Source: an uncultured Bacteroidota bacterium (GTDB lineage: Bacteria > Bacteroidota > Ignavibacteria > UBA10030 > UBA6906). Taken from it: a stretch of DNA of 64,000 nt. Location of the stretch: assembly GCA_963700635.1 (NCBI GenBank), contig CAVOYH010000003.1, positions 160,001 through 224,000 of the forward strand. Direction: 5' to 3'. The notes beneath the pieces were generated by a model that did not search any database, was not told the origin of the DNA, and was given only the letters and a program-made list of their open reading frames with translations. Shown piece after piece: positions 2,680-64,000 of this stretch (its first letter is position 1; every line of letters starts with the position of its first letter). The translations under genes and the position numbers were made by a program.

Positions 2680-2723
2680 CCTGGCCTCATTGATTGGGCC
2701 CGAACCTCCTGCAGAGGCCCGGG

Positions 2724-3335: not shown

Positions 3336-3376
3336 GGAACACCTCCGGGGAGAGAGGAAGAGTCAGGATCGGGTGG

Positions 3377-4411: not shown

Positions 4412-4507
4412 ATGTTTATCTCCAGGGTGCATTCTGTGTGCGATGCAGTGACAACTCCGCCCCCTCTCCCCGTGCCACGACACGGGAAAAGCGGGAGCGG
4501 AGTGGCA

Positions 4508-10911: not shown

Positions 10912-11032
10912 ACAGGCCTCCGTGGATGCTCACACGTCTGGGTGACCGGGGAAGGGGGTGCAACAGCGCACGACCCGCTGACTGGAGTCACGCTCGCAAC
11001 GCCCGTTGGTCTACCCCATGCCGGATGAGTAC

Positions 11033-11068
11033 AAAAAAGGGCCGTGAACGGTTTTCCATTCACGGCCC
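11033..11068 (-). terminator. Rho-independent terminator
   Basis: Minus strand GGGCCGTGAATGG-AAAA-CCGTTCACGGCCC followed by T6, just downstream of the stop at 11106. Confidence 0.85.
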
Positions 11069-11105
11069 GGTGGTCATGCAGCTGCGCTAGAATCCGGTGA
11101 ACGGA

Positions 11106-12998: not shown

Positions 12999-13194
12999 GC
13001 GATGACTCCTTGAATTAAGTTAGGGTTGGTTGATTTTCAGGTCTGGTGTGTCCAAGGGATCTCACGGCTTTGGGAGACTGCGTGATCCGGGTAGCCCACA
13101 ACACACGAAATTTCCCACGCCACAATAACCGCTTGCGACAAGGGAATAATTACGGTGATTACATCGGGTGGAAGCGGGCTGACATGTCGTATAA

Positions 13195-13223
13195 AATATA
13201 GCGATATTGGCCAGGAATGTCAA
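13195..13223 (-). promoter_or_regulatory. Sigma70-type promoter for the 12998 gene
   Basis: TTGACA-N17-TATATT on the minus strand in the divergent intergenic region. Confidence 0.7.
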
Positions 13224-13361
13224 GGGGCGCAGTGATCTGCCGTTGGTAGTATTCGTCCATGGAACTTCCAATCAGGGATCACACTTGCCTTTTTGTCCTC
13301 GAATGTTAACTTGGATATGTTGTACTCTCACCCCTTTTCACCTACTAAACAGGAGGCTTCC

Positions 13362-44788: not shown

Positions 44789-45971
44789 CGGTTCTGAAGC
44801 ACATAGGCCCGCGTAATAATCGGATCCACATTGTGCCGCGAAAGAATCCGGTCGATCATCCCGGTGGTGAGCACAGTATCCGCAGGCAGCAGTTTGATAC
44901 CGCCCGAAGTCACCAGTTCGGTGGCAAGGACCATTCCTGGCTCCAGGGCCTGGACGGCCACTTCCTTTTTCCCTGTATCCAATCCGCATCAACCACAGCC
45001 ATCAGGTATTCCTCGGTAAGTTGCACAAGGCGGGCATCGAACAGCGTACCGCTGCCGGATGTCAGGCGTTGCCGGATGACCCGGGGATCCAGCGACTCAC
45101 CTTCCTCAACAGCGTTGATAATCCGGAGAATCCGTGAACCAAGGGGGATCTGATCTCTGAGCAGGTGGTCCGGCAATCCGGTGCCATCCACGTTCTCCGC
45201 CTGATGCCGTAGCAGATGTCCCACCTCACGAAGCTGGGGTACATTCCCGACGATCATGTGACCGAAGAGGGGAAACTGCGCCATCGTATCTCTGTCTACC
45301 TGCGTCCATGCCGCACGGTCTTTCGTCAGTACTCCGTCTGCCACAACAACTTTTCCGATTTCATGCAGTTTGGCAGCCAGCACGATATTGTGCAGGGACT
45401 CTTCTGGAAAACTCAGGCGGGTACAAATCCAGCGGGCATACGCACCGGCGCGTTGGGAGCGGCCTGCGGCCGCCGGCACACGCAAACTGACAATATTCAC
45501 AAGCAGGGCCGTGAGAGCGTCGAGATGCTCACCCAGCGCTGTATTCAGACGCTTAAGTTCTGTTCCGTCCGCCTTGAGTTGATCCTGCATCTTTTTGATA
45601 CGGAGCAGCGCGCGGATGCGCGACAAAAATTCCACGGGCGGGAATGGCTTCACGATGTAGTCGTCCACCCCGGCCTCATACCCCTTCAGTTTTGTCTGCA
45701 TCTCCCCCGCGCCTGTGAGCATCATGACCATCGCGTCGTGCAGCAGGGTATTCTGGCGGACCCATTCAACGAAGTCGAGTCCGCTCTCTTCTCCGAGCAG
45801 CAGATCGACCACGATCAGTGAGGGTGTGTCCCATTCGGCGAGTCGTTTTGCTTCAGCGATATTCTGGGCGGAAGCGACGTTGTACAGCCCTTCGGCTGTT
45901 AACAGATCCTTTACCATCTTAAGGGCAACAGGATCATCGTCGACCAGGAGTATAACCGGACGGAGCTTCAT
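44785..45971 (-). CDS. Response regulator with degenerate HD-GYP domain; frameshift near 44970
   Basis: Receiver domain (LVDDD, VVD, MLT, IVKP); HEIGK and RHQAENVDGTGLP; C-terminal LEPGMVLA...GIKLLP module continues in the frame of ORF 44785..44982. Confidence 0.8.
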
Positions 45972-46756
45972 GACCCCTCTCCTGCAATAAACTTCACCAC
46001 AATGCTGACCCGCCGGTTGGTAACGTCGTAGGGATCCCGGGCATTCTTGAGCCGGCTATCCGCATAGCCGCGCACCTCGTCGAACCGCGCCATCGGTACG
46101 CCATTACGCACGAGCACCCGGCGCGCGCTATTCGCGCGATCGGCACTGAGTTCGAAATTCGTGTAGCCATCATTGGTCGAATAGGGCCGGCTGTCCGTAT
46201 GACCTTCGATGATAAGATGGTTGGGTAACTTTGCAATTTCATCCGCGATGATCTTCAGCAGATCGACGGCTTCCCGTTTCATGCTTGCGGTACCAACATC
46301 AAAAAAGAATGACTCCGACCTGTCCAGCAATTCGATCCGCAACCCTTCACGGATAATCTCTATATTCACCTGGTCGGCGAGTTTACTGAGCCCCGGTTTG
46401 CCGCTTAGTTCCTGGAGAATCTGTTGTGCCATCGCCTGCAGATGGAGCGAATCTTGCTGGCGTTTGAGTCGGTCCTCCATAATTTTTTGTTCACCCAGGG
46501 GCAATTGTTTCGACTCAAAGACTCCCCCTCCCTTTGTATTCTCCATAAACGCCCCGGGGTCTTTGAAGTACTCTGCGACGTAGGATTTCACCTGCTGGCT
46601 TTGGCCGACGATCCAGAGCACGATGAAGAGTGCCATCATGGCGGTCACAAAATCAGCATAGGCCACCTTCCACGCACCCCCGTGGTGCCCGCCGTGGCGG
46701 ACCTTCTTTTTGATGATGCGTATGGGAGGGTTTTGCGATTGATCAAACGGATCCAT
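45968..46756 (-). CDS. motB: Flagellar stator protein MotB (set 1)
   Basis: HGGAWKVAYADFVTAMMALF; OmpA-like EGHTD...NFELSADRA...NRRV. Confidence 0.95.
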   Translation of the reverse strand: MDPFDQSQNPPIRIIKKKVRHGGHHGGAWKVAYADFVTAMMALFIVLWIVGQSQQVKSYVAEYFKDPGAFMENTKGGGVFESKQLPLGEQKIMEDRLKRQQDSLHLQAMAQQILQELSGKPGLSKLADQVNIEIIREGLRIELLDRSESFFFDVGTASMKREAVDLLKIIADEIAKLPNHLIIEGHTDSRPYSTNDGYTNFELSADRANSARRVLVRNGVPMARFDEVRGYADSRLKNARDPYDVTNRRVSIVVKFIAGEGS

Positions 46757-46765
46757 GGAATCGGC

Positions 46766-47632
46766 CTATGCTTGCTGAGCTTTGGCGCTGCGGACCGCAT
46801 CTTCGAGTTCTGCGAACGATGGCCGCACGCTATGAAAAATGACTCGTCGGGAGAATTCCACCACAATAATCGGGGCATTCCCCTTGGCATAGGCGACGAT
46901 GCCGGCTTTGATACACTCCAGGAACCGTGCTTCCGACGCCTGGAGCAGCTCGATATGTGTTGCGAGGGGCTGCACAAAACCATACGATGCCAGAATACCG
47001 ATGAAGGTGCCCACCAAAGCCACTGCGACTTTATGCCCGATCTCCTCGGGAGGTCCGCTGATGGCCTGCATGGTAATCACGATACCCAGAACAGCAGCCA
47101 CAATTCCAAGTCCCGGAAGCGCATCTCCGATTTTCTGAATCAGAGCCGGTGCCGAAGCGCCCTCGGCATGGTGGCTGTCCAGGTCCGCATCCAGCAATGC
47201 TTCCACATCATACGGCGGCACACCCCCACCGAGAAGAAGCTTCATGGTATCGCACAGATAAAACAGCGCATGGTGATGCTGGAGAAGAAATGCATTCTTT
47301 GAGAATACCGTGCTCTTTTCAGGATCCATCACGTGCGGCTCGAGCGCGATCAAGCCATCCCGCTTGGCCACCGTAAACAGATCAAAAAGCGTCAGAAGAA
47401 GCTCGAGATAACGCTTTTTTGTGAACGGGTCGCCTTTAAACACTCCGAGCGTCTGGGCAAGCACCATTTTCAGTTGCACCAGCGGGGTCATAACCATCAG
47501 AGACCCTATCGCCGCGCCGCCGATGATCAGGAACTCGACGGGTTGGATGAGAACCATGAGTGGTCCACCTTCCAGCACAAAGCCCCCGAGGACTCCTATG
47601 AGTACGATTGCAGCGCCTATAATGACAAACAT
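46766..47632 (-). CDS. motA: Flagellar stator protein MotA (set 1, long proteobacterial-like type)
   Basis: EFLIIGGAAIG, DALPGLGIVAAVLGIVITM, ALVGTFIGILASYG, RPSFAELE. Confidence 0.95.
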   Translation of the reverse strand: MFVIIGAAIVLIGVLGGFVLEGGPLMVLIQPVEFLIIGGAAIGSLMVMTPLVQLKMVLAQTLGVFKGDPFTKKRYLELLLTLFDLFTVAKRDGLIALEPHVMDPEKSTVFSKNAFLLQHHHALFYLCDTMKLLLGGGVPPYDVEALLDADLDSHHAEGASAPALIQKIGDALPGLGIVAAVLGIVITMQAISGPPEEIGHKVAVALVGTFIGILASYGFVQPLATHIELLQASEARFLECIKAGIVAYAKGNAPIIVVEFSRRVIFHSVRPSFAELEDAVRSAKAQQA

Positions 47633-47653: not shown

Positions 47654-47884
47654 TTAATCTTTCGTGTCCTTTGCTCCGGCCACCACGGCACTGCTGCCCG
47701 ACCGATCCGGAGAATGGGGTCCATGTGTTTCCGCAGCGCCGTGCGGCTCTGTACGAATCACGCGCACGCCTGGAGGTGCATCAATCCCGAGCTTTACCTG
47801 TCCACCCCGTATGGCAATCACTTTCACGACGATATTATCGCCGATCTTGATTGCTTCCGAGATTTTTCGTGAAAGCACCAGCAT
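47654..47884 (-). CDS. csrA: Carbon storage regulator (divergent C-terminus)
   Basis: MLVLSRK...IKIGDNI...QVKLGIDAP...R; adjacent to fliW. Confidence 0.88.
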
Positions 47885-47886
47885 GC

Positions 47887-48300
47887 TCACGTCCCTTCAA
47901 TGACGGCGTGTACTTCTATCGGAAACCTTTCCGGTAACGCCGCATCATCAAGCGTTACCTGTTCGCCCGTGCGGGGCCCGTTACGGATAATGATGGGATG
48001 GCGGAGATCGAGCCACCATGCCACGTCACCCTCTCCTGTCGTCACAATCACGAATGTGGTGGTCCCTTCGGCCAGGTTCTCGCAACTTGTGTTACCGTTC
48101 AGGACCACGGTCGGATCGAGCACGGTCAGCGCAAGATCCGGATCGTCAACACTTACCAGCCACTGAAACGGAGATGTCCGTTCATCATTAACGATAACAA
48201 GCCGTGTACAATCTTTCCGCTCCAGAAGTCCGTCTGGAAACCGTATCATCTGCTCTTCCGAGCAGGAGATCTCGCCGAAAAGTGTGCTCACAAACTTCAT
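47887..48300 (-). CDS. fliW: Flagellar assembly factor FliW (divergent)
   Basis: STLFGEI...IRFPDGL...[15 protein letters not shown]...P; position next to csrA. Confidence 0.78.
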
Positions 48301-49055
48301 AGGCGTTTCCTCCGGGGAGTCCCTGGCGCAAGGGCTTCCGCCGTGTGTATGGATGGTTGATGTTGTACCTCGCCCGTGGCGATGATAACAATATCCACCC
48401 TTCTGTTCTTCGATCGATCCCCGGGCGTCTCGTTGGAAGCGATGGGAAAGAACTCCGAATACCCGACCACCGATACTCGCTCCTGAATCAGGCCGTGACG
48501 CTGTATAAGATAGTAGGCCACGTTGAGTGCGCGGGCAACGGAGAGATGCCAGTTCGACGGAAATTGTATGGTGCTGATGGGGACATTGTCGGTATGTCCC
48601 TCCACACGCAAGTCGTTCGGGAGTGTGCGCAGCACGCCTGCGAGAGTGTCGAGGGCGGTCAGGGACGTCTGTTTGATCTCCGCGCTCCCCGATGCAAAGA
48701 GGAGTTCTTCCAGGATATGGATGGTGACGCCGCGTTCATTTTCCGTGACGGTGATCGGGAGGTTCTGTGAATCCAGCTGCAGGGCGTTCCTTACGTCCTG
48801 CACAATCTGCTGGCGCTCGGACTTCAGCGCTGACCCCGGCTGTTCAATCATCGAGGCATTTCCCACCAGAATCCCCCGGGGGGAACCAAAAACGCCGTTG
48901 AGTGCTGATGCTATTTCTGCATACTTGCCTGCGTCAACTTTTGAAATTGCATACAGGATGACGAACAGTCCGAGCAGCAAGGTGATAAGATCGGCGTAGG
49001 TCAGAAGCCATCGATCTTCGTTGCCGTGATGCTGTTGTCTGCGCGTGCGTCTCAT
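48297..49055 (-). CDS. motB: Flagellar stator protein MotB (set 2)
   Basis: RWLLTYADLITLLLGLF; VEGHTDN...SNWHLSVARA...NRRVDI. Confidence 0.93.
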   Translation of the reverse strand: MRRTRRQQHHGNEDRWLLTYADLITLLLGLFVILYAISKVDAGKYAEIASALNGVFGSPRGILVGNASMIEQPGSALKSERQQIVQDVRNALQLDSQNLPITVTENERGVTIHILEELLFASGSAEIKQTSLTALDTLAGVLRTLPNDLRVEGHTDNVPISTIQFPSNWHLSVARALNVAYYLIQRHGLIQERVSVVGYSEFFPIASNETPGDRSKNRRVDIVIIATGEVQHQPSIHTAEALAPGTPRRKRL

Positions 49056-49834
49056 CGTTTTTCCGGCTCCTGTTCACCCGCAGGAAGCATGCTGTTCAGT
49101 TTGGCTTTGATGACCGAAGGGATTTCCCCCGCCTGAATCGCCAGAATCCCCTCGACAATCATGTCCATAAAAAGGTATTCTTCGTTGTGGATGTACTTCA
49201 GCTTGTCCGCGATGGGCAGCCAGACGATATTCGCCATAAACACCCCCCAGAGTGTCGCGACGAAGGCACTTGCGATGTGCCGGATCAGCGTATCCGGATC
49301 CTCGCCCGCAGACGCCAGTGTCGCGATGAGCCCCATCACCGTTCCGATGATGCCCATTGTCGGGGAGTACCCGCCCATCTTCTGGAAGAGCGAGGCGCTT
49401 TGTGTATGCCGTTCAGTCACATAATCCACTTCCGTTTCAGCGAGCGATCGGAGGATTTCCGGTTCGGTGCCATCAATTGCAAAGCGAAGAATCTTGCGCA
49501 TAAACAGATTCTCCACTTTGCCGAGTTCTTTTTCCAGTGCGAGAAGGCCGTCCTTACGCGCGATGGTGGAAAACCGCACCAGCGTGTTAATCGCGTCCTG
49601 CATTGCGTACGTCGGAGGATAGACGACCAGTTTGATCATCTTCCCCATGCGCAGAAACGTCTTGAGCGACGTGCCGACAAGGGCGGCGGCAAACGTACCG
49701 CCAAAAACAATAAGCATGGCGGGGGGGAGCAACAGTCCCTCCATATTCCCGCCTTCCCAGAGGAAGGAACCGAATACGGCAGCCATGCCGAGAAAGAGAC
49801 CCAGGGTAGTTGCTATGTCAAGGGAACGTCTCAT
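49052..49834 (-). CDS. motA: Flagellar stator protein MotA (set 2, short Bacillus/PomA-like type)
   Basis: LIVFGGT, ARKDGLLALE, GGYSPTMGIIGTVMGLI, AFVATLWG. Confidence 0.93.
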   Translation of the reverse strand: MRRSLDIATTLGLFLGMAAVFGSFLWEGGNMEGLLLPPAMLIVFGGTFAAALVGTSLKTFLRMGKMIKLVVYPPTYAMQDAINTLVRFSTIARKDGLLALEKELGKVENLFMRKILRFAIDGTEPEILRSLAETEVDYVTERHTQSASLFQKMGGYSPTMGIIGTVMGLIATLASAGEDPDTLIRHIASAFVATLWGVFMANIVWLPIADKLKYIHNEEYLFMDMIVEGILAIQAGEIPSVIKAKLNSMLPAGEQEPEKR

Positions 49835-52578: not shown

Positions 52579-53037
52579 TTACACACGGTGATCGACAAGT
52601 TGTCGCGTGTGATCGTCGGTCACGAGACGTAACGTGTCTTGCACAAATCGAAGTGACCGCTGGAGCAGCATCCGGTTCTGGTCGTTCATGTGCAGGATCC
52701 GTTCGACCACCGTCCGGAGCCGTTTCGCCATTGTGGAGATCCGTACGGCGTCTCCCGCTGCGAGAAAGTCCAGCAGTTCAACGACAGTAATATCACGCTG
52801 TTTACCGACGGGGAGAGATGAGGTATCACCCACCAGTTCGGCCGTCAGCCGCGCGCGTTCCGCTTCCAATTCCCGGAAGGGTGTAAGGAGTTTGTCCTCC
52901 TCGACTACCAACGACGAGAGGATATCACTCTGGAGCCCTACAATGGACCGTTGTTTACGGCTGAGCAGAAGAAGCAACGCCTCGCCAACCTCCACTTCGG
53001 TCTCCATGACCCGTTCGAGTTCTTCAATTTTCGTCAT
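52579..53037 (-). CDS. flgN: Flagellar export chaperone FlgN
   Basis: Helical protein with NDQNRMLL motif directly upstream of flgK; start moved to MTKIEEL. Confidence 0.8.
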   Translation of the reverse strand: MTKIEELERVMETEVEVGEALLLLLSRKQRSIVGLQSDILSSLVVEEDKLLTPFRELEAERARLTAELVGDTSSLPVGKQRDITVVELLDFLAAGDAVRISTMAKRLRTVVERILHMNDQNRMLLQRSLRFVQDTLRLVTDDHTRQLVDHRV

Positions 53038-53971
53038 TGGTGCCTGACTCCTGTTGTTCAAAGTGGCGCAGATACTGGAGCACTTTACCGACATATGCCT
53101 GTGTTTCTTTGTAGGGAGGAATCCCCTTGTGCTTTTCAACGGCACCCGGACCCGCATTATAGGACGCAAGCGCGTGTTCCACGTTTCCCCGGAACCGATT
53201 CAGTAGTTGACTCAAATACTTGGCGCCACCGTTCACGTTCTGCTGTGGATCCCAGACGTTTCGCACACCCATGGCGGCTGCCGTGGAGTCAATAAGTTGC
53301 ATCAATCCCTTCGCCTGCTTTGATGATTGGGCGGTCGTACGTCCGGCGGACTCCGTAGCAATCACGGCTTTCAGCAAACTGGCATCCACGCCGTGCATTT
53401 CTGCAGCATCGCGGATAATCGGGGAAAGCGCTTCCATACGGCGGCGGACCGTATCGGGAGGCGCTGCGGACGTTGTGCTTATCGTACCCATTCCACTTAC
53501 CGCTGACTTCGGGAGCGTTTCATGCCGCGCCGGAACCGGGGCCGACCCGGGTGTTCCTGCACCATCGGACCGGGCAGCAGGTTTTGCTGCGACACCAGCC
53601 CGGGCAGAAGCAGGGACGGCCGCGGACACCGACCCGGCCCGGGTGACCGGATGTGACGTCGGGGTCATTGTGCGCGGCATTTCTTCTCCTGTGATTTCCT
53701 TGTACAACATCTCCCCCAGGCCAAGATTGCTCCCGCGGGATACATGGCGGGCCAGTTCGACGTCAAACATTCCCTCCAGCATATCCCCGCCATAACTCTC
53801 ACCGAACATCTCATCTTTGGGAATGCTCGAACGCATGCTCTTGAGCATGTAGCCCACCAGCACGGCCTCAAACTCCTTCACCGCGTGCTGTAGGCGGAGT
53901 TTCTGCTTTGCATCCAGCGGTTGCTGGGTCTGCGCAGCCTGCGTCTGTTGTGTGGAACTCACCGGTGCCAT
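53024..53971 (-). CDS. flgJ: FlgJ-type rod-binding domain fused to an SLT lytic transglycosylase
   Basis: EFEAVLVGYMLKSMR...LGLGEML N-domain; IATESAG, AKGLMQL, ASYNAG, YKETQAYV SLT motifs. Confidence 0.85.
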   Translation of the reverse strand: MAPVSSTQQTQAAQTQQPLDAKQKLRLQHAVKEFEAVLVGYMLKSMRSSIPKDEMFGESYGGDMLEGMFDVELARHVSRGSNLGLGEMLYKEITGEEMPRTMTPTSHPVTRAGSVSAAVPASARAGVAAKPAARSDGAGTPGSAPVPARHETLPKSAVSGMGTISTTSAAPPDTVRRRMEALSPIIRDAAEMHGVDASLLKAVIATESAGRTTAQSSKQAKGLMQLIDSTAAAMGVRNVWDPQQNVNGGAKYLSQLLNRFRGNVEHALASYNAGPGAVEKHKGIPPYKETQAYVGKVLQYLRHFEQQESGTNDEN

Positions 53972-57207: not shown

Positions 57208-57951
57208 CTACATCCGGCCGATATCCATCGTCCGGTCCAGAGTCGCGTCCTGCGACTGAATCATCCTTTGATCTGCTTCAAAAGCCCTGCTGAGCTCAAT
57301 CATGGCTATCATTTCTTCGATTCCTTCTACATTCGATTCTTCAAGGAATCCCTGACGTATGGAGACAGAATCCGATGGAACATCGCGCAGCATTTCACCC
57401 TGGTTCAGGAACAGAAGTGATTCATGATCCTTCTGGAGTGCCGTGGGGTTTTCCGCTGCAACGACCCGCAGGGTCCCGAGGGGCTCATTGTTATGCACGA
57501 CCTCTCCCGTCACATTAATCGCGATCGTATCCTGCTTGATTTTGTCCGTCTGCGGCATCTGAATCCGGCCTTTTGTTCCCAGCACAGGATATCCTTCCGC
57601 GGTAACGAGCGTGCCATCGGTGCTCAAGGAAAAGTTCCCGTTCCGTGTCAGCCGCATGCCACGAGGGGTCTCCACGGCGAAGAAGCCGTCACCCGCCAGC
57701 GCGAGGTCAAACGGATTCCCTGTCTGACGCAGTGCCCCGGCCGAGAGGTCGATATACCGCTGGGTCTCCACGCCGCTGAGATCTGAGCGCCCGTCTGGAC
57801 GGGCATTGGAAGACTCCTCCAGCATCCGGACAAACACTCGATCCCGTTTGAAGCCCGTGGTGTTGATGTTGGCCAGGTTGTTGGCGAGCACTTCCATGCG
57901 TGTCATTTTGGGCCGCATGGCCGCCTCTGACGAGTAGATGCCTTTGATCAT
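57208..57951 (-). CDS. flgF: Flagellar proximal rod protein
   Basis: ANNLANINTTGFKRD, TGNPFDLAL, LTRNGNF, QGFLEESNV; precedes flgG. Confidence 0.9.
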   Translation of the reverse strand: MIKGIYSSEAAMRPKMTRMEVLANNLANINTTGFKRDRVFVRMLEESSNARPDGRSDLSGVETQRYIDLSAGALRQTGNPFDLALAGDGFFAVETPRGMRLTRNGNFSLSTDGTLVTAEGYPVLGTKGRIQMPQTDKIKQDTIAINVTGEVVHNNEPLGTLRVVAAENPTALQKDHESLLFLNQGEMLRDVPSDSVSIRQGFLEESNVEGIEEMIAMIELSRAFEADQRMIQSQDATLDRTMDIGRM

Positions 57952-59117
57952 TGGTGATCCTCCTTCTTCTCCACCACCTGTCCCATGGATTTCAATTTCA
58001 CCGCGAGATCGAATTCCCCTCTTCCCACGCCCAGTTTCCGGGCTGCATGAAGTTGTTGGGTCTTCGTCGTGGCACGGGAAAGAACGGTTTCCATCCGGCC
58101 GGACGTGAGCGTTGGTTCTGTCTGTTCGTGAAAGCGCCGTGCAAGTGTAATCTCTTCGCTCCCCCGCTTGAACGTGCGCGCAAGCTGCAGCGAAGTCTCC
58201 CGGCCATTATCATGCTCTTGTGACTCATCTTCGATCAGGGCGCTGGAAAATGTGTTTCTTCGCGTCGTGCCCGTTTCTTCGTACGCATCGCCGGCAGCAA
58301 TCCCTTCAGGATTCGCCGGGAGTTCAGCGAAGGCAGTGGCGGCCCGGGGGAGCCTTGATTTCCCTGAACGGTGAGCTTTCCGCTGACGCGCCAGATACCA
58401 GGCGCCGAGCATGAGCCCTGTTGAAACCGAGCTTAGCCCCACACTCAGGAGTATGACAAACCCTGTTGAGAATCCGGACACCTGCGTATCCGCCGTCGAA
58501 GGGCCATTGGGAGAATACTCATGCGGGCTATCAGGCTCCATCTGGCGTCGGGCGACAGCCGGGATATCGACAAGAGGGCTCGTGGATGCCTGTCCGGGCG
58601 GTTCCTCTGCCGACGTGCGTGCAGGCTGAGTGCCGGCCGTGGGTCGCGCGGCTGTTCCGGCTTTTGTCGCTGTCGGAGCTGCAGGAGGTGGTGACGTGAT
58701 GCGCTCCGGCGTGCGCCGGACGATGTCACGTCCGTCAACCTCAACAAAGAGTTCGTTTCCGCTGGATGGCCGTACACAGCGGTACGTACTCCCCTCAACG
58801 ATCATCATGCTTACCACAAGGCTGTCGGATGCCGGGCTTGCAAAGGAGATACTCTCCAGCGGACCTGACGGGATGAGCCTCCGCTGGATTGTTCCCGGCG
58901 TTGCGGGCCGTGTACGCGAGAAGATCAGCCGTACGGCTCCTTTTCCCTGTTCTGTTGAAAAGCGCACGTCACCGGAAAACGCGAAGGTCACCTTGGTCCG
59001 ACCACTGTGTGTGGTGTAACGAACGTCTTTGAGGAGTGTTGTCTGGTCCGCACACAGGTGTCCCTGCGCAAGCACCAGAACAGCAACGACCAGAACGACA
59101 CTTGGCAGGCGCATCAT
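57948..59117 (-). CDS. Membrane protein: AMIN-like exported domain, Pro/Ala linker, one TM helix, small C-terminal helical domain
   Basis: Signal peptide; LKDVRY...TKVTF...LFVEV; TM GFVILLSVGL...LGAWYL; AARKLGVGRGEFDLAVKL tail. Confidence 0.6.
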   Translation of the reverse strand: MMRLPSVVLVVAVLVLAQGHLCADQTTLLKDVRYTTHSGRTKVTFAFSGDVRFSTEQGKGAVRLIFSRTRPATPGTIQRRLIPSGPLESISFASPASDSLVVSMMIVEGSTYRCVRPSSGNELFVEVDGRDIVRRTPERITSPPPAAPTATKAGTAARPTAGTQPARTSAEEPPGQASTSPLVDIPAVARRQMEPDSPHEYSPNGPSTADTQVSGFSTGFVILLSVGLSSVSTGLMLGAWYLARQRKAHRSGKSRLPRAATAFAELPANPEGIAAGDAYEETGTTRRNTFSSALIEDESQEHDNGRETSLQLARTFKRGSEEITLARRFHEQTEPTLTSGRMETVLSRATTKTQQLHAARKLGVGRGEFDLAVKLKSMGQVVEKKEDHQ

Positions 59118-60478
59118 CGTGGTGCCCTCCAGACCGGCAAGAATATCGTGAATGTTGTCCCCTTCGCCTCTTCACTTTCGACCCGGATTTCGCCTTTATG
59201 CTGGGCGATGATTTTGCTGCAGATCGCAAGGCCCAGTCCGGTTCCCTTTTCCCCTTTTGTGCTGAAAAACGGTTTGAATATTTTTTCCTGAAGATCTTTC
59301 GCAATGCCGTGTCCGGTGTCGGAGAAACTGACACACACATGGAATCCCGTCAGTGTTGAGGACACGCCGATCGTTCCTCCTCCAGGCATCGCGTCGCGCG
59401 CATTGATGAGCAAATTAAGAAACACCTGCTGGAGATAGTTGGCATTCCCCCCGACGGCAGGAAGATCCTGTGCAAGTTTTTGTTCGATGGTGATCCCGTT
59501 TCCCTCGAATTCATGCTGCACCATCATCACAATGTCTTCGATCGCTCTATTGACGTCAATCGGCTCCGTGACGACCTCCTCGGATGCGTTCCGGGAGAAG
59601 TTCATGAGGCGGAGAGTGATGTCGGAAAGCCGTTTTACCTGTTTGCTGAACATCTCGATCCAATTGGGCAGGGGTCGGCCGGCCTGTACAAGTTCGAGAT
59701 GGAGCATCAGCACCTGCAGGGGATTTTTGATTTCATGGGCGATCCCCGCGGCCAGCTCGCCGATAGCGGCCAGTTTTGCTGCCTGTACCATTTGCGCCTG
59801 CGACGCCTTGAGTTCGTCGTTTGCCTTCAGGAGCTGCTGATATGTTCTCCAGTTTTCCACGCCCACCGCGGCCTGGTTGGCAAGCACCGACAGGAGCTGG
59901 ATGTCCTGATTCGAAAACTCCTGCTGGGGTTTTTCGGTGTGGATGATGAAGACCCCGATGCCCTGGCTTCGCAGGATCAGGGGCACGATCACAAAATTTC
60001 GCGCGCTGCTCTTCGCCAGCATATGTTCCAGGTCCGGGATGATGACCGTCTTCTTTTCCGAGATCACCCAATCCACGATCCCTGCCTCCAGCTGGTGTTC
60101 CGCCTCGGCCTGAAGCCGGGGTGCGCTTTTTGACGAAAGAGGCAGCAGGTGTCTGGAAGTTGACTGGAACAGGAAGATGTTACTGTCAAGCACCTGAATC
60201 ACCTGTCGCGCAAGCTCGAGCAACGCACTGACGATGAGTTCCGGCTCGGTTGCCGTGCTGATGATATTTGACAATCGTTGTGTGGCGACCAGTTCATCGA
60301 TGGAACTACGGATGGCCAGATTGTTCTGGTTAAACTGCACGTTATCCTGCCGCAGGATATCAATTGTTTTTTCGAGCGCCTTGATGTACGTCTCACGGCT
60401 CTCGATGAACTGCTCGAATTGGGGTAGACCCTCTTCAAGGAGCTGCATCCGGTTTTTTTTCTTCGGGACAGATTCCAT
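59114..60478 (-). CDS. Soluble GAF-domain histidine kinase
   Basis: Coiled coil; GAF (IVPL...FSNQDIQLL...ANQAA); H-box AHEIKNPL; NLLINARDA, DTGHG, FFSTK, GTGLGL. Confidence 0.93.
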   Translation of the reverse strand: MESVPKKKNRMQLLEEGLPQFEQFIESRETYIKALEKTIDILRQDNVQFNQNNLAIRSSIDELVATQRLSNIISTATEPELIVSALLELARQVIQVLDSNIFLFQSTSRHLLPLSSKSAPRLQAEAEHQLEAGIVDWVISEKKTVIIPDLEHMLAKSSARNFVIVPLILRSQGIGVFIIHTEKPQQEFSNQDIQLLSVLANQAAVGVENWRTYQQLLKANDELKASQAQMVQAAKLAAIGELAAGIAHEIKNPLQVLMLHLELVQAGRPLPNWIEMFSKQVKRLSDITLRLMNFSRNASEEVVTEPIDVNRAIEDIVMMVQHEFEGNGITIEQKLAQDLPAVGGNANYLQQVFLNLLINARDAMPGGGTIGVSSTLTGFHVCVSFSDTGHGIAKDLQEKIFKPFFSTKGEKGTGLGLAICSKIIAQHKGEIRVESEEAKGTTFTIFLPVWRAPR

Positions 60479-60492
60479 GGTCGTCGTAATGA

Positions 60493-61368
60493 CTACCCCC
60501 CTCCTGATTGGCCAAACTGGGTAACCGCTGCCAGGTCCGTTTTGACCAGCGCATGGTAGTTTTCTACGTATTCCTGAAGCACCTTGGGATCGTTGAGCTG
60601 GAGGTGTTCCAGCGCCCAGGGACTAAAGTCAGCGCCTTTGTCAAATTCCATAGGTTGTACATCCATGCGCCAGGAGAAGATATCAGCACAGTGAATGATC
60701 GCGACCAGGTCCTTGTTCTTTTCGGCCCGGTCGGGAGTATGATGCATGTTGATTGCCTCCACCAGATGGTCGGGAAGATTCCATCGCTCGGCCAGCCATC
60801 CCCCGACTTCCGCGTGTGTCACTCCCAGAACACTCTCTTCGGCTTCCAGCGCCGTCAGGTCCGTCTCATGAATGATTTCCGTGATCCGTTTGTATTCATT
60901 CTTAAAGTACCGGTGGAGCACGGAGATCCCCATATCGTGCAGGAGCCCTCCCACAAACACTTCGCCGGACACCCGGTATCCCAGATCGCGGGCCAGGCGC
61001 CGGGCCAGCACACCGCACATGATGGCATGGTCCCAGAACCCTTTGGCGTTGAACATTGCATCCGACTTCCTCTGTAACGAACTCACGAGGGAGATGCTGA
61101 TCACGATCTCCTTCAACGCATCATACCCAAGCACAATAATGGCAAAGTCGATCGTCGAGATCTTCCTGGGAAATCCATAGAATGGCGAATTGGCAATTTT
61201 AAGTACTTTTGCCGTTAACGCCTGATCCGTCGAAATGAGTTTCCCCAACCTGGACGCACTGGTTTTGGGATTATCGACAAGCTCGACGAGTTCCATTGCA
61301 ATCGTAGGCAGAGCAGGGAGTTGAATAATGCTCTGCACTCTTTCTTTGATGATTTCCGATGACATCAT
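60493..61368 (-). CDS. HDOD domain protein
   Basis: LPALP, DQALTAKVLKIANSPFYG, FWDHA, LLHDMG, HAEVGGWLAERWNLP...HH. Confidence 0.93.
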   Translation of the reverse strand: MMSSEIIKERVQSIIQLPALPTIAMELVELVDNPKTSASRLGKLISTDQALTAKVLKIANSPFYGFPRKISTIDFAIIVLGYDALKEIVISISLVSSLQRKSDAMFNAKGFWDHAIMCGVLARRLARDLGYRVSGEVFVGGLLHDMGISVLHRYFKNEYKRITEIIHETDLTALEAEESVLGVTHAEVGGWLAERWNLPDHLVEAINMHHTPDRAEKNKDLVAIIHCADIFSWRMDVQPMEFDKGADFSPWALEHLQLNDPKVLQEYVENYHALVKTDLAAVTQFGQSGGG

Positions 61369-61386: not shown

Positions 61387-62433
61387 TTACAGACAATCAT
61401 GGATAGTGGCCGCCAGGGTTGACAGAGCGACGTCATGCAACCGGTACACGTCTTCCTCCGTGGTCCCCATAAGGTGCGCGACTTCGCCGATGGCCAGCCC
61501 TTCCTGGTAGCAAAGGGCAAGTGTAAGACGTTCCTTGTATGGCAGCGCGCCGATTGCTTCCACCAGCGATTGTTTCAGCGCCGCGACCAGCCGGTCGAAT
61601 GCCGGGGCCTCCGCCATCCCTTCCTGAATACGTATCGTATCATCCTGCAGCCGGGGGGGCGTCAGATCGTCCTCGGTTAACCCCAGGAGCGTCAACGCAG
61701 TCTGGTCATACGCCTGTTCGGCGTCGGCCTCATACCTGCCGACATCCATACGGCGGCAGAGGATATCCGCAATGTGCACCGTCGCGACAAGGTATGGATC
61801 ATACACGGCGTTGGCCGGATGATGGTGATACCGGACCGCTTCCACGATGCGATCTCCCAGACCCCATTGTTCCGCAAGCCAGGAGCCGATTTCTCCGTGA
61901 TGTTCCACCACGGTTTGCGGGTCTTCCGGCGCGAGGTTCCAACGGATATGACCTTCACGCTGTTCTGCAGGGGAGATCATGCCGATATCGTGGAAGAGTC
62001 CCGCCACAAAAGCGTCATTCTCATGCACAGGCGGATACTTCCGGGCCAGGACTCGCGCCACAAGGCCGCAGGCGATAGAGTGGTTCCAGAACTCTCCATA
62101 CTGCGTGAACAAATCAACGATTGTACGGAATGCTCCTGTCACCACCATACGCATGACCGTATCCCGTAACGCATCAAATCCCAGCATGGTGACGGCATGT
62201 GGCACTGTTTCCACACGCGCCGGGATACCAAGGGAGGGCGAATTGGCAATCCGCAGCACGCGTTCGCTCAGTCCGCGATCGGATGACACGATGGCTCCAA
62301 GTTGCGCCACGCTTGATGCGGGATTCCGCATCACCCCGAGCAGTTCCGTCACCAGCGCTGAACGATCACGGTGCGGCGCTACAGACGTGAGCGAGGACTG
62401 CTCTAATACCGCCAGGCGTGTCTGACGAGTCAT
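61387..62433 (-). CDS. HDOD domain fused to a C-terminal sigma70 region-4-like domain
   Basis: VLRIANSP, FWNHS, FHDIG, RYHH; tail LVEAIGALPYKERLTLALCYQEGLAIGEVAHLMG; ATGA overlap with the upstream gene. Confidence 0.85.
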   Translation of the reverse strand: MTRQTRLAVLEQSSLTSVAPHRDRSALVTELLGVMRNPASSVAQLGAIVSSDRGLSERVLRIANSPSLGIPARVETVPHAVTMLGFDALRDTVMRMVVTGAFRTIVDLFTQYGEFWNHSIACGLVARVLARKYPPVHENDAFVAGLFHDIGMISPAEQREGHIRWNLAPEDPQTVVEHHGEIGSWLAEQWGLGDRIVEAVRYHHHPANAVYDPYLVATVHIADILCRRMDVGRYEADAEQAYDQTALTLLGLTEDDLTPPRLQDDTIRIQEGMAEAPAFDRLVAALKQSLVEAIGALPYKERLTLALCYQEGLAIGEVAHLMGTTEEDVYRLHDVALSTLAATIHDCL

Positions 62434-63509
62434 GACCACTCTCCGAATTCCGCGAGCATCGTTGTAAACCTCTGGAGTGCGTGCCCATGCATAAGTACAA
62501 CATGGTCCCGCGTTGTCCCCAGGACGCCCGCAATGCCTGCCAGCGAAAGGCCTTCAAAGTAGTGCAACGCCAACAAAAAACGCTCCTGCTCTTCCAGGTC
62601 TTCAAATGTATTGATCAGATTTTCCTTGACCACACTGACTTTTAATTGTAGTGCCGGTGCGCGATGCAGGACTCGTTCCTCCAGCGAGCACATCCGATGC
62701 TCCATCGATTCTGATGCGCATCCCGACAGTAACCCGAGTGTGTCACAGGCGCTCCGGGAGAAGGCCATTTCCGGCTCTTGCCCCATGGGGCCTCCGAACA
62801 GACGATGGCAGATGACATCGGCAACATGGACCACGGCGGCAAGCACAGGATTCTGCTCGGTGCCGGTCGGCCCGTGGTGATGACGTACTGCATCACGTAA
62901 GTCCGCATCAAGAGTCTCCCAGCGATCCAGCATCCATGATCCGGCTTCTTCATGCATTCCTTCAGGGGTCAGGAGATTCGGACGGCGATGATCGTATTCG
63001 GGTCTCCAATCCAGAAGCCCCTCCACTTCGGGAGAAGGCAGATCGTCACCCAGGAACAGGAATCCGATATCATGAACGAGCCCGGCGACAAATGCCCGGT
63101 CTCTCTCCCGGCAGCCTGTCTCTGCGGCAACAGCCCGTGCAACAAGCCCGCACATCAGCGAATGATCCCAAAGGTCTTCGCAGTAGTGGAAGCTGTTGAC
63201 AATATGCCGCGTTGCCCTGCTGGCAACCGCCCACTTCACGGTGTCCCGGATGGACTGCGAGCCGAGCAGGCCGAGGGCAAGGTTGACATCCCGTACCTGA
63301 CCCGGGAGGCCGAACGCGGTATTTGCCGACAGAGAGAGCGAACGCATAAGAATCGGATTCCATCCAATCACCGCTGCCAGGCGCGAGACGGGTGTCAGCG
63401 GATCGTTGACAAGCGCGACCACATACTCGAGCACCCTGGCCTTAAACGGAAATGCGGCTCCCGTCTCCAGGGCGCGATGTTCAAACTCATCAACAATGGG
63501 CATCCGCAT
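62430..63509 (-). CDS. HDOD domain fused to a C-terminal sigma70 region-4-like domain
   Basis: Start moved to ATG 63509, just after the fliA stop; LWDHS, VHDIG, RHHH; tail LEEQERFLLALHYFEGLSLAGIAGVLG. Confidence 0.85.
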   Translation of the reverse strand: MRMPIVDEFEHRALETGAAFPFKARVLEYVVALVNDPLTPVSRLAAVIGWNPILMRSLSLSANTAFGLPGQVRDVNLALGLLGSQSIRDTVKWAVASRATRHIVNSFHYCEDLWDHSLMCGLVARAVAAETGCRERDRAFVAGLVHDIGFLFLGDDLPSPEVEGLLDWRPEYDHRRPNLLTPEGMHEEAGSWMLDRWETLDADLRDAVRHHHGPTGTEQNPVLAAVVHVADVICHRLFGGPMGQEPEMAFSRSACDTLGLLSGCASESMEHRMCSLEERVLHRAPALQLKVSVVKENLINTFEDLEEQERFLLALHYFEGLSLAGIAGVLGTTRDHVVLMHGHALQRFTTMLAEFGEWS

Positions 63510-63513
63510 GCTC

Positions 63514-64000
63514 TTATGCCTCCATGGCGACAAGTCTGGTCCGGAGCTGGCGCAACACTTCGGAATGTATCTGCGATATGCGCCCTTCTGAGATATCAAG
63601 AACCTTTGCGATCTCCGTAAATTTTAGACCTTCGTAGTAGTACAGCGCAATGACGGTGCGGTCGCGCTCCGGCAGCCGCTCGACGGCCTCCAGCAGGATG
63701 GCGCGGGTTTCTTGCTCGCTGAGACGGTCGAATGGACTTGGCCCGTCGGATGGTGTCTCATCCAGCGCTTCTGCACTGTCGCTCCCGCCTCCGGCGCCGG
63801 CCTCGCGCGAAGGAGCTACAGACCCGGTGCCGATGAGCTCATAGTATTCCTCCAGGGTGATTTCGAGCTTCCCGGCTATTTCTGCGTCAAGAGGTTCTCT
63901 CCCGTTCTGCTGCATAACCTGATGGGCGGCTTTGCCCACCTTCCGCGATGTCTCACGCACCGACCGGGGGACCCAGTCGAGTTTACGCATCTCGTCGAGA
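63514..64000 (-). CDS. fliA: Flagellar sigma factor sigma-28 (5' part outside window)
   Basis: LDEMRKLDWVPRS and LPERDRTVIALYYYEGL...EIAKVLDISEGRISQIH. Confidence 0.92.
   Translation of the reverse strand, partial: LDEMRKLDWVPRSVRETSRKVGKAAHQVMQQNGREPLDAEIAGKLEITLEEYYELIGTGSVAPSREAGAGGGSDSAEALDETPSDGPSPFDRLSEQETRAILLEAVERLPERDRTVIALYYYEGLKFTEIAKVLDISEGRISQIHSEVLRQLRTRLVAMEA

Follow-up and report, generated by a model that had tools for sequence, protein, structure and literature searches.

Tandem HDOD proteins with a sigma-28-type region 4 encoded directly downstream of fliA: candidate HDOD-gated sigma-4 decoys

The window (the whole 64-kb stretch of DNA that was analysed) contains an operon in which fliA, the gene for sigma-28, is followed by two genes for HDOD proteins whose tails resemble region 4 of the sigma factor itself. 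All genes of this fliA/HDOD operon lie on the minus strand. The features considered below are as follows.

63514..64000, minus strand: 3' part of fliA (sigma-28), with regions 3 and 4 present and the 5' end cut by the window edge
62430..63509, minus strand: gene A, 359 aa, HDOD/HD domain with a sigma-28 region 4 tail
62433..62678, minus strand: region-4-like tail of gene A, residues 278-359, with four helices, matched by FliA/WhiG models over residues 278-356
61387..62439, minus strand: gene B, HDOD/HD domain with a sigma-28 region 4 tail
61390..61638, minus strand: region-4-like tail of gene B, residues 268-350 (350-aa numbering); TIGR02479 matches residues 268-344
60493..61368, minus strand: gene C, 291 aa, HDOD/HD protein without a tail (HDOD 221.4 bits)
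59114..60478, minus strand: cytoplasmic GAF-HisKA-HATPase histidine kinase (GAF_3 49, HisKA 37.1, and HATPase_c 95.7 bits)
57948..59117, minus strand: membrane protein of unknown family, 389 aa, with a weak DUF6115 match only (E 0.17)
44910..45971, minus strand: response regulator with an HD-GYP-type (HD_5) output domain (Response_reg 80.5 and HD_5 85.1 bits)

The initial annotation had described tandem HDOD/region 4 fusions just downstream of fliA, and these were confirmed by the open reading frames and by Pfam, NCBIfam, and BLASTP; the three peptide strings quoted there for FliA and both genes were all found in the translations. The 4-nt gap between fliA and gene A and the coupling of genes A and B likewise held. 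The fliA stop codon TAA (63516-63514) is followed by a gagc spacer and the gene A ATG at 63509, while the 3' end of gene A reads TCATGA, so that its TGA (62432-62430) overlaps the gene B ATG at 62433 as ATGA. The ORF list places the start of gene B at GTG 62439 (350 aa), two codons 5' of ATG 62433 (348 aa); the ATG is the likelier start, as the database copy (P0001) has 348 aa. The database copy of gene A (P0268) is 359 aa long, the same length as in the window. The fliA fragment itself scored 60.6 and 40.4 bits against the Pfam models Sigma70_r4 and Sigma70_r3, respectively, and matched TIGR02479 (FliA_WhiG) at E 4.3e-41 over the 161 aa present.

Past gene B, the operon continues tightly packed with gene C, the GAF kinase, the 389-aa membrane protein, and flgF onwards. 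The kinase gene starts 14 nt after gene C, and the membrane protein gene was assigned to the same operon because it shares 4 nt with the end of the kinase gene and another 4 nt with the beginning of flgF; an atlas search with the membrane protein gave nothing above 0.84. The initial annotation had missed gene C and the GAF histidine kinase in this operon. The HD_5 response regulator sits at the far end of the window's flagellar cluster and is possibly a partner of the orphan GAF kinase.

HDOD is widespread and, in the available text of two studies, is termed a domain of unknown function with no established mechanistic role (PMC11004494, PMC6543031). Genes A, B, and C scored 93.2, 138.5, and 221.4 bits, respectively, against the Pfam HDOD model (PF08668, HD superfamily), all above the curated cut-off of 22.9, and A and B also exceeded the cut-off of the HD model (39.8 and 41.9 bits). 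The all-helical, HD-like fold predicted for the HDOD proteins resembled solved HDOD structures, the best Foldseek matches being 3hc1, 9qzk (SadB), 3mem, 3m1t, and 3i7a (probability 1.00 each), and the family profile matched 3hc1 at E 9.1e-32. Residues H120, H150, D151, H181, H205, and H206 were invariant among 29 sequences; in a set of 65 sequences, H150 was invariant and the other five were conserved in at least 90%. They align with His and Asp residues of 3hc1 and form a putative metal site; in this Geobacter protein, five His and one Asp are described as holding two iron ions (PMC12075610). Gene C shares 35% identity with gene B, confined to the HDOD part. In the tree, gene C (starred) groups with the second HDOD protein of locus L003 and the fliA-adjacent HDOD protein of L006, followed by those of L004 and L030 in path length. 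Judging by this placement, gene C corresponds to the HDOD gene directly following fliA in Ignavibacteriota-type loci.

The last ~80 residues of A and B constitute a sigma-28-type region 4. In Pfam, the HDOD assignment of the initial annotation stood, but region 4 was matched just below the curated cut-offs (24.1 for Sigma70_r4 and 25.7 for Sigma70_r4_2), which counts against the assignment: the tail of gene A scored 21.3 bits (E 1.9e-4) and 22.6 bits, and that of gene B 21.9 and 20.8 bits, respectively. BLASTP against the window's own FliA fragment aligned both tails with its region 4, as had been proposed (E 4e-9 for A and 6e-9 for B), and the likeness of gene B extended upstream into the region 3/4 linker. 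The best NCBIfam matches of both tails were FliA/WhiG models (E 3e-8 to 1e-7), which align by their last 75-95 positions only and score 32-34 bits against cut-offs of 190-343. A 29-member family profile matched the Escherichia coli FliA chain 6pmi_F at E 1.2e-14 (57 bits) and the WhiG and Pseudomonas aeruginosa FliA chains at 51-52 bits; the best sigma factor outside the FliA/WhiG group was an ECF factor (29.7 bits). All 24 full-length relatives scanned had a region 4 match at E <= 0.01, and 20 of them passed the curated cut-off for at least one region 4 model, with P0124, P0127, P0131, and P0138 falling below it. On this homology, the tails of A and B descend from region 4 of sigma-28.

Two other identities were rejected. 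A generic helix-turn-helix tail of the LuxR/GerE type, which the initial annotation had named as evidence against its proposal, found no match, as Pfam listed neither GerE nor any other helix-turn-helix family for A or B at E <= 1; FliA/WhiG models remained the best matches of the tails, and conservation is lower in the recognition helix (0.67) than elsewhere in the tail. Nor are A and B sigma factors: the region 2 and region 3 models of Pfam gave no match in either at E <= 1, in agreement with the absence of region 2 recorded initially, and the -35 contacts are lost.

The tail was confidently modelled in both proteins by AlphaFold2 (pLDDT 83.2 and 82.3 and pTM 0.82 and 0.68 for A and B, respectively). 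Helices were predicted at residues 287-304, 307-318, 323-330, and 334-356 in the tail of A and at 281-298, 301-312, 317-324, and 328-349 in that of B. The mean pLDDT of 10-residue blocks in the tail of A was 87-95 over residues 281-350 and 70 over 351-359. The pTM of A suggests that the tail is docked in a fixed pose on the HDOD domain, which gating would require.

Among the best 150 matches in a library of 1.84 billion proteins, 27 full-length representatives carried the HDOD-region 4 fusion. The fusion adjoins fliA in the window and in all three public loci carrying it, so the synteny expected by the initial annotation was found. In a tree calculated with the tails removed, 28 fusion proteins and 26 plain HDOD proteins split at 100/100 support, and therefore only one change of state is needed; on this tree, the fusion arose once. 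We infer that A-type and B-type proteins co-occur in nine further cases. In 29 of 80 loci, the gene immediately after fliA encodes a tail-less HDOD protein; these loci span at least six phyla (Ignavibacteriota, Fibrobacterota, Latescibacterota, Gemmatimonadota, Deferribacterota, and Bacteroidota-labelled genomes). The HDOD gene is immediately followed by a kinase gene in L003-L008, L012, L013, L016, L030, L044, and L049, among others. No fliA lies upstream in 47 of the 80 loci, and HDOD-kinase pairs occur without fliA too. The wider and older feature is the plain HDOD gene directly after fliA, usually followed by a GAF kinase, and the two fusion genes are insertions into this fliA/plain HDOD/kinase module.

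We compared 63 tails with 32 FliA proteins in a region 4 alignment. The -35 element is contacted by K208 and R220 in E. coli sigma-28 (bioRxiv 10.1101/2020.01.02.893370) and by S224 and Q228 in P. aeruginosa sigma-28 (PMC12784957), according to the text available for each. Mean identity at these four positions was 0.11 in the tails vs 0.94 in FliA. The R220/R225 position is Arg in all 32 FliA proteins but Lys or Arg in one tail only, with Asp or Glu in 44 of 63, and the K208/K213 position is Lys or Arg in 29 of 32 FliA proteins vs 7 of 63 tails; the S224 and Q228 residues occur in 7 and 19 tails, respectively. Column 74 of the alignment, after the recognition helix, is Lys or Arg in 25 of 32 FliA proteins and in none of the 63 tails, and the region 4 domain has a mean net charge of +0.09 in FliA vs -3.7 in the tails. 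The four DNA-side positions read ADHL in A and GEDR in B.

The FlgM side of the same domain gave the opposite picture. The Pseudomonas sigma-28/FlgM structure, as reported in the available part of PMC12784957, has an interface of eight sigma-4 residues, and the L204R substitution weakened FlgM binding from 2.2 to 422 nM with a small motility defect. These eight positions read LFFALYGL in A and LILALYGL in B. Mean identity there was 0.70 in the tails and 0.77 in FliA, compared with 0.34 in the other 44 sigma-4 columns of the tails, and the tails keep seven of the eight positions as the same or a hydrophobic residue. The L204 position is Leu in all 63 tails, the A203 position Ala in 62 (vs 19 of 32 FliA proteins), and the Y206 position Tyr in 60; the E209 position is Gly in 58 tails, as it is in FliA of the window. 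In the B clade, no part of the protein was as conserved as the LPxxER..YxEGL segment (0.93), and the recognition helix (0.67) was less conserved than the HDOD domain (0.73). The numbers thus bear out the initial statement of a retained scaffold with a replaced recognition helix. By these residues, the tail keeps the sigma-4 fold and the hydrophobic anti-sigma groove and has become acidic; sigma-type promoter reading has probably been lost and the surface gripped by the inhibitor kept. Such a selective loss on the DNA side with retention on the FlgM side is the pattern that would be expected of a sigma mimic.

Because the -35 residues are lost and the domain is acidic while fold and groove are kept, we read the tail as a decoy rather than a DNA reader. 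A and B would each combine a putative metal-binding HDOD/HD domain with a degenerate copy of region 4 of sigma-28, and our leading, still tentative, reading (probability of roughly 0.4) is that they are HDOD-gated sigma-4 decoys working by PhyR-like partner switching. The HDOD domain would let go of the tail, and the freed tail would capture an inhibitor of sigma-28 region 4, either FlgM or a functional equivalent; FliA would thereby be freed and the late flagellar genes more strongly expressed. Release might be triggered through the metal centre or a ligand of the HDOD domain, or alternatively by the tail-less HDOD protein and the GAF kinase, whose genes are co-transcribed with A and B. The idea of HDOD-gated sigma mimics in the initial annotation is partly supported, namely by the sigma-28-type region 4, the lack of region 2, the fliA linkage, and the pattern of kept and lost residues.

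Several points speak against the decoy reading. Most of the kept FlgM-side residues are hydrophobic and would also be kept for the fold alone, that face of the tail may serve other partners, and FlgM also contacts sigma-2 and sigma-3, both absent from the tails. FlgM (PF04316) was not found among 69 small ORFs of the window, which covers 64 kb of a 1.9-Mb contig, and 13 related loci. The flgM gene often sits between flgJ and flgN; in the window, flgJ abuts flgN. Should the lineage lack FlgM, the named decoy target would be wrong.

In the part of PMC4598750 available, PhyR is described as joining a signalling domain to a sigma-like one that no longer works as a sigma factor; the signalling domain masks the sigma-like one until a signal comes in, and the latter binds the anti-sigma factor NepR. 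A and B resemble the alphaproteobacterial PhyR/NepR/sigma-EcfG system in carrying a degenerate sigma-like domain on a signalling domain, in the location of the gene beside its sigma factor, and in a histidine kinase that, for A and B putatively, feeds the system. However, PhyR mimics an ECF sigma factor with an N-terminal, receiver-gated pair of sigma-2-like and sigma-4-like domains, whereas A and B have the sigma-4 domain of a group-3 (sigma-28) factor alone, at the C-terminus of an HDOD/HD domain with a conserved putative metal site; no receiver (Response_reg) match was found in either with Pfam. The likeness would lie in the working principle only, not in membership. The FliA/FlgM system is likewise related by the homology of the tails to FliA region 4 and the largely kept FlgM face, but A and B differ from FliA in lacking regions 2 and 3 and the -35 contacts and in their acidic domain.

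Among described HDOD proteins, 3HC1, SadB, GsmR, and Cj0248 share the HDOD/HD domains with A and B, and several members are genetically linked to motility in the accessible text of PMC11004494; unlike A and B, none of the four has a sigma region 4. SadB further differs in having lost most metal ligands and in carrying a YbaK-like domain instead.

A reading absent from the initial annotation fits as well, namely that the HDOD domain itself may bind region 4. The fliA-adjacent HDOD proteins, such as gene C, would then be anti-sigma factors or proteolysis adaptors, and the tails of A and B pseudo-partners in cis, leaving A and B self-inhibited or competing and tuning the amount of FliA that the HDOD system holds. 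We regard this as rather unlikely. The plain HDOD gene after fliA, present in 29 of 80 loci and at least six phyla, is older than the fusion, and the pTM of 0.82 suggests a defined packing of tail on HDOD in A, but the model of B reached only 0.68 and neighbouring genes often do not interact. Moreover, 47 of the 80 loci have no upstream fliA, and therefore the HDOD module is not tied to sigma-28 in general. SadB delivers the transcription factor AmrZ to proteolysis with no HDOD-pocket ligand needed, according to the available text of PMC12075610, and motility was reported as altered in HDOD mutants of Xanthomonas, Campylobacter, and Pseudomonas (PMC11004494, PMC6543031). FlgM was not found in the flagellar loci scanned, and the kept anti-sigma groove would suit any partner using it. 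Similarly doubtful is the broader proposition that HDOD proteins encoded after fliA in at least six phyla are unrecognised sigma-28 regulators, binding FliA region 4 in place of or alongside FlgM under the control of the metal/ligand site and the GAF kinase, with the A/B fusions as built-in competitors and a 'Rosetta stone' of this interaction, the regulator having acquired a copy of its target domain.

That the tails compete with sigma factors appears unlikely. Once released by HDOD, they would occupy the beta-flap tip of RNA polymerase and lower sigma-28-dependent or general transcription, and the sigma-4 fold and the region 4.1/4.2 core are indeed strongly conserved. The conserved groove could also serve polymerase binding because FlgM blocks the main polymerase-binding determinants of sigma-2 and sigma-4 (PMC4598750, in the part available). 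However, L187 and L204, which are among the best-kept residues, are described in the accessible text of PMC12784957 as taking no part in polymerase or DNA contacts, and a sigma-4 domain on its own, without sigma-2 as the main core-binding determinant, would be a weak competitor.

A and B might be ordinary one-component transcription factors, with HDOD as the sensor and region 4 as a helix-turn-helix of new specificity, which we judge quite improbable. The helix-turn-helix is intact in both predicted models, many regulators have DNA-binding domains homologous to region 4, and the Q228 position is Gln in 19 of 63 tails, with Arg one residue earlier in 22. Nevertheless, few parts are less conserved than the recognition helix, even in close orthologues (0.67 vs 0.93 in the 4.1 segment), the key phosphate-contacting Arg is replaced by Asp or Glu in 44 of 63 tails, and the basic residue of column 74 (25 of 32 FliA proteins) is retained in none of the 63 tails, which have a mean net charge of -3.7; such charge and helix features are unusual for a sequence-specific DNA reader.

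It is very unlikely, finally, that the tail, left over from a partial fliA duplication, now only caps the HDOD protein structurally or helps it to dimerise and plays no part in sigma-28 control: although the order fliA, HDOD-region 4, HDOD could have resulted from tandem duplication of the fliA 3' end and HDOD followed by stop-codon loss, and no partner is known, the tail is kept in all 28 fusion proteins of the tree, down to ~26% identity and after the further A/B duplication, some positions are tighter than in FliA (Ala in 62 of 63 tails vs 19 of 32 FliA proteins), and the Arg position has not drifted at random but has reversed its charge in one direction.

Control of a sigma-28-family factor by a protein other than FlgM has a precedent in the Streptomyces RsiG-(c-di-GMP)-WhiG system, which also involves a nucleotide second messenger, as described in the available part of PMC7005675. 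The tail has WhiG chains among its best matches, and the window's flagellar cluster contains the HD-GYP response regulator; RsiG differs, however, in being a coiled-coil anti-sigma factor unrelated to HDOD.

Control of sigma-28 is textbook material centred on FlgM secretion; the fliA-A-B locus joins it with HDOD signalling and points to a candidate switch for flagellar genes. Should the decoy reading be correct, sigma mimicry would have evolved independently for a group-3 sigma factor, the literature searched, as far as its text was available, containing only PhyR, an ECF mimic; late flagellar genes of poorly studied, uncultured FCB-type bacteria would then be tied to a domain that senses a metal or a ligand. 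In addition, the fusion points to a concrete candidate partner surface for the commoner tail-less HDOD genes beside fliA. If it is instead the HDOD domain that binds region 4, this would be its first mechanistic role in sigma-factor control; the adaptor protein SadB is the only worked-out HDOD case in the available text of the literature searched.

As for novelty, the architecture had initially been presented as unfamiliar from characterised systems. It is uncharacterised in the literature searched, where no published description of an HDOD-sigma region 4 protein was found, but it is already in databases, whose records give HDOD+HD+Sigma70_r4 as the precomputed domains of the relatives. The source names of these relatives are either 'HDOD domain-containing protein' or, wrongly, 'sigma-70 family RNA polymerase sigma factor'.

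All genes of interest were found on the minus strand and were packed as one operon, as follows:

63514 to the window end, minus strand: fliA, 3′ part, the 5′ end being cut off by the window edge
62430–63509, minus strand: gene A, 359 aa, HDOD/HD protein with a region-4-like tail (a fusion), starting 4 nt past the fliA stop codon
61387–62433, minus strand: gene B, 348 aa, second fusion, whose ATG overlaps the TGA of A as ATGA
60493–61368, minus strand: gene C, 291 aa, tail-less (plain) HDOD protein, 18 nt after B
59114–60478, minus strand: GAF-HisKA-HATPase kinase, 14 nt after C
57948–59117, minus strand: 389-aa membrane protein, with a 4-nt overlap with each neighbour

These coordinates and junctions bear out the initial annotation, which had placed tandem HDOD/region-4 fusions directly 3′ of fliA, and all the peptides it quoted were found in translations of the window. 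The gene for the 389-aa protein was followed by flgF, flgG, flgA, flgH, flgI, flgJ, flgN, flgK, and flgL, and then by motAB (49052–49834 and 48297–49055), fliW-csrA (47887–48300 and 47654–47890), a second motAB pair (46766–47632 and 45968–46756), and a receiver-HD-GYP protein gene (44910–45971). In the 389-aa protein, the N-terminus resembles a signal sequence, a Pro/Thr-rich stretch and a single membrane segment are also present, and the C-terminus weakly matches DUF6115 (E 0.17). Searching a protein atlas with this protein yielded no match above 0.84. Small DUF2802/DUF6115-like proteins were also encoded 3′ of the kinase in two Latescibacterota loci (L005:3756–4193 and L049:13172–13642; L numbers denote public loci matching the fusion query). 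Type IX secretion markers, namely Por_Secre_tail and PorV-like proteins (421–4483), share the window with the full flagellar cluster. Taken with the closest relatives of FliA and of gene C, these markers suggest a lineage of the FCB group related to Ignavibacteriota and not classical Bacteroidia.

HDOD and HD matches exceeded the Pfam cut-offs in A, B, and C, and approximately 80 extra C-terminal residues were present in A and B only. The pairing of HDOD with Sigma70_r4 proposed earlier was thus upheld by Pfam for its HDOD half, but the region 4 scores of the tails (21.3 and 21.9 bits in A and B, respectively) fell slightly under the cut-off of 24.1 bits. Neither region 2 nor region 3 was matched in Pfam, in agreement with the annotated lack of region 2. 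In BLASTP, the tails of A and B matched the window's own FliA with E values of 4e-9 and 6e-9, and the top NCBIfam models for both tails were FliA/WhiG. A profile of 29 family members gave 57 bits for E. coli FliA, 51–52 bits for WhiG and P. aeruginosa FliA chains, and 44 bits for Aquifex FliA, compared with 29.7 bits for the best other sigma factor, an ECF. By these several independent measures of sequence similarity, the tail of A and B is a sigma-28-type region 4. AlphaFold2 gave confident models of both proteins (pLDDT 83.2 and pTM 0.82 for A; pLDDT 82.3 and pTM 0.68 for B), with the tail built as four helices, and Foldseek ranked solved HDOD structures on top and sigma-28/FlgM complexes lower. 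Sequence comparison indicated that the HDOD part retains the five His and one Asp of the 3HC1 di-iron site, which bind two iron ions (PMC12075610).

For the residue-level comparison, 32 FliA region-4 segments from the window and the loci were aligned with 63 tails, taken as the last 82 residues of each protein and passed through a motif filter; this dropped 10 of the 73 members (database relatives P0022, P0026, P0028, P0030, P0126, P0130, P0134, P0137, P0143, and P0144), although most of these ten do have tails. Contact residues were mapped from two structural papers (bioRxiv 10.1101/2020.01.02.893370 and PMC12784957).

Residues at −35 contact positions (Ec and Pa, E. coli and P. aeruginosa FliA numbering)
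Ec R220 / Pa R225: FliA, Arg in 32/32; tails, Lys/Arg in 1/63 and Asp/Glu in 44/63
Ec K208 / Pa K213: FliA, Lys/Arg in 29/32; tails, Lys/Arg in 7/63
Pa S224: FliA, 29/32; tails, 7/63
Pa Q228: FliA, 32/32; tails, 19/63

Lys or Arg at column 74, which follows the helix, occurred in 25/32 FliA sequences and in none of the 63 tails, and the mean net charge shifted from +0.09 in FliA to −3.7 in the tails. The earlier claim of a kept scaffold with a replaced recognition helix therefore stands, as the fold is intact and the −35 contact residues are lost in the tails. The region 4 of the window's own FliA (63514–63780) carries Thr and Gly at the Pa K213 and S224 positions, both −35 contacts, where Lys and Ser are found in 27 and 29 of the 32 FliA sequences, respectively.

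The sigma-4 residues in contact with FlgM, as given in PMC12784957, are L187, I191, L200, A203, L204, Y206, E209, and L210. Mean identity at these positions was 0.70 in the tails and 0.77 in FliA, compared with 0.34 at the other 44 sigma-4 columns in the tails. L204 was retained in all 63 tails and Y206 in 60, and A203 was present in 62/63 tails versus 19/32 FliA sequences. The E209 position was Gly in 58/63 tails and in the window's own FliA, and at six of the seven other contact positions, 60 or more of the 63 tails had a hydrophobic or aromatic residue. The same paper reports that L204R lowers FlgM affinity approximately 190-fold with little effect on motility, and its authors state that neither L187 nor L204 takes part in contacts with DNA or polymerase (PMC12784957). 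Among close B-type orthologues, conservation within the protein peaked at LPxxER..YxEGL (0.93) and was below average in the recognition helix (0.67).

No Pfam match to FlgM was obtained among 69 small ORFs (10 from the window and 59 hand-picked from 119 candidates in 13 loci), a search that a divergent small FlgM can escape. In the window, flgJ (Rod-binding and SLT domains) abuts flgN and leaves no room for flgM (52579–53971). Sigma-28 promoters have the consensus TAAA, 14–16 bases, CCGATA. This motif occurred 0 times in the window against 0.11 expected, a count tied to a general consensus that may differ from that of this lineage.

Word-based searches returned 34 relatives of A (41–100% identity), and the top 43 rows for B were full-length-type relatives (39–100% identity), 40 of which had a precomputed region-4 domain. 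Their database names vary ('HDOD domain-containing protein', 'putative signal transduction protein'), and some are wrongly named 'RNA polymerase sigma factor'. When 1.84 billion representatives were searched exhaustively with a profile, 54,721 HDOD matches were obtained at E ≤ 1e-3, and 27 of the best 150 extended through the tail. The region-4 cut-off was passed for at least one model by 20 of 24 scanned tail-bearing relatives, and a tail-only word search of a large protein collection gave six matches, all family members. Only three fusion loci (L001–L003) were found among one-genome-per-species contigs; the fusion lay directly 3′ of fliA in all three, in support of the expected linkage in other genomes. 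L001 carries A, B, and C as in the window, and in L002 and L003 a single fusion precedes a plain HDOD gene and the kinase gene. In tblastn, L007, L008, L016, L044, and L049 (Latescibacterota and Gemmatimonadota) also seemed to hold fusions; these were rejected, since it was the upstream FliA that the tail segment had hit.

With the tails removed, the HDOD tree placed 28 fusion proteins and 26 plain HDOD proteins in two groups with 100/100 support, so that only one change of state is needed, and A-type and B-type proteins formed separate starred clades. The starred group that holds gene C also contains the HDOD next to fliA in L006, an Ignavibacteriaceae locus, and the second HDOD of L003; by path length, L004 and L030 come next. 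From this grouping, C is read as the older resident, with the fusion genes sitting between it and fliA. We infer that the fusion may have arisen by tandem duplication of the 3′ end of fliA plus HDOD followed by stop-codon loss, which would yield the observed gene order. In the region-4 tree (79 columns), for which the window and loci held no other sigma factor usable as an outgroup, a single long branch separated the tails from FliA.

The A/B system sits within a broader fliA-HDOD-kinase module, of which no description was found in the literature searched. A plain HDOD gene lay directly 3′ of fliA in 29 of the 80 loci, a set of top query matches and not a random sample, and the 29 spanned at least six phyla; inspection added a thirtieth (L043), 47 loci had no fliA upstream, and 4 had too little sequence. 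By phylum, 25 of the 29 were distributed as Ignavibacteriota 7, Fibrobacterota 6, Bacteroidota-labelled 5, Latescibacterota 5, Gemmatimonadota 1, and Deferribacterota 1. The module was present, with the HDOD match near position 10001, in L004–L018, L023, L026, L030, L032, L039, L041, L044, L047, L049, L052, L060, and L071, and at 59114–61368 in the window. A GAF-type histidine kinase usually came next after the fliA-linked HDOD gene. HDOD-kinase pairs were not confined to fliA loci; Geobacter, Desulfuromonadaceae, and Nitrospinaceae provided examples that lacked fliA.

The intact fold, the anti-sigma groove that is kept and sometimes tightened, and the promoter-reading residues erased with charge reversal, together with the fusion to a signalling domain and the position beside a sigma gene, are the features expected of a sigma mimic. 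In PhyR, a sigma-like domain binds the anti-sigma NepR after a receiver domain lets go (PMC4598750); this is the known precedent, and here HDOD would gate region 4. Because of this pattern and precedent, we tentatively favour A and B as HDOD-gated region-4 decoys, with a probability of about 0.4, in which the released tail would act, through partner switching, on the inhibitor that holds sigma-28 region 4, whichever that may be. The sigma-mimic reading of the initial annotation is thus supported in part by the residue-level evidence, and every binding step is one that we infer. A serious rival, if an unlikely one, would have region 4 bound by the HDOD domain itself, with the fused tail as a cis pseudo-partner; it is supported by the age and breadth of the fliA-HDOD linkage, by the high pTM obtained for the model of A, and by the adaptor role of SadB for a transcription factor (PMC12075610). 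Less likely than either are competition of the tails for RNA polymerase, which we consider improbable, and a new DNA specificity, slightly more so. A functionless relic is the least probable reading. If the mimic reading is true, A and B represent another form of both sigma-factor mimicry and HDOD signalling; no description of an HDOD plus sigma region 4 architecture was found in the literature outside subscription journals.

Several further features were observed around the module. In L002 (5185–7467), the tail-less HDOD and GAF kinase form one 760-aa ORF, whereas its close relative L003 has a separate HDOD (10975–11883, 302 aa) and kinase (11887–13257, 456 aa) with 3 nt between; the long ORF is either an assembly error or a natural fusion, which would hint that HDOD and kinase are physically linked. 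A conserved small ORF of approximately 80 aa, with no Pfam match and two hydrophobic, probably membrane-spanning segments, lay between flhG and fliA in seven loci, a site that falls beyond the window's end:

L002:3062–3313
L003:8849–9100
L006:5597–5845
L030:4874–5131
L041:8137–8385
L052:9025–9282
L060:8168–8404

FliA of Melioribacteraceae/Ignavibacteriales was just 209–217 aa, versus approximately 250 aa elsewhere (L041:8410–9039, L047:8391–9020, L052:9289–9915, L060:8400–9029, and L071:9227–9877), and was followed by two tandem tail-less HDOD genes in four of these five loci, one HDOD being seen in L071. The L009 flagellar cluster encodes, in the same neighbourhood as fliA-HDOD, an RsbW-like anti-sigma kinase (HATPase_c_2; 13301–13744) and a STAS anti-anti-sigma (13761–14090), a classical partner-switch pair.
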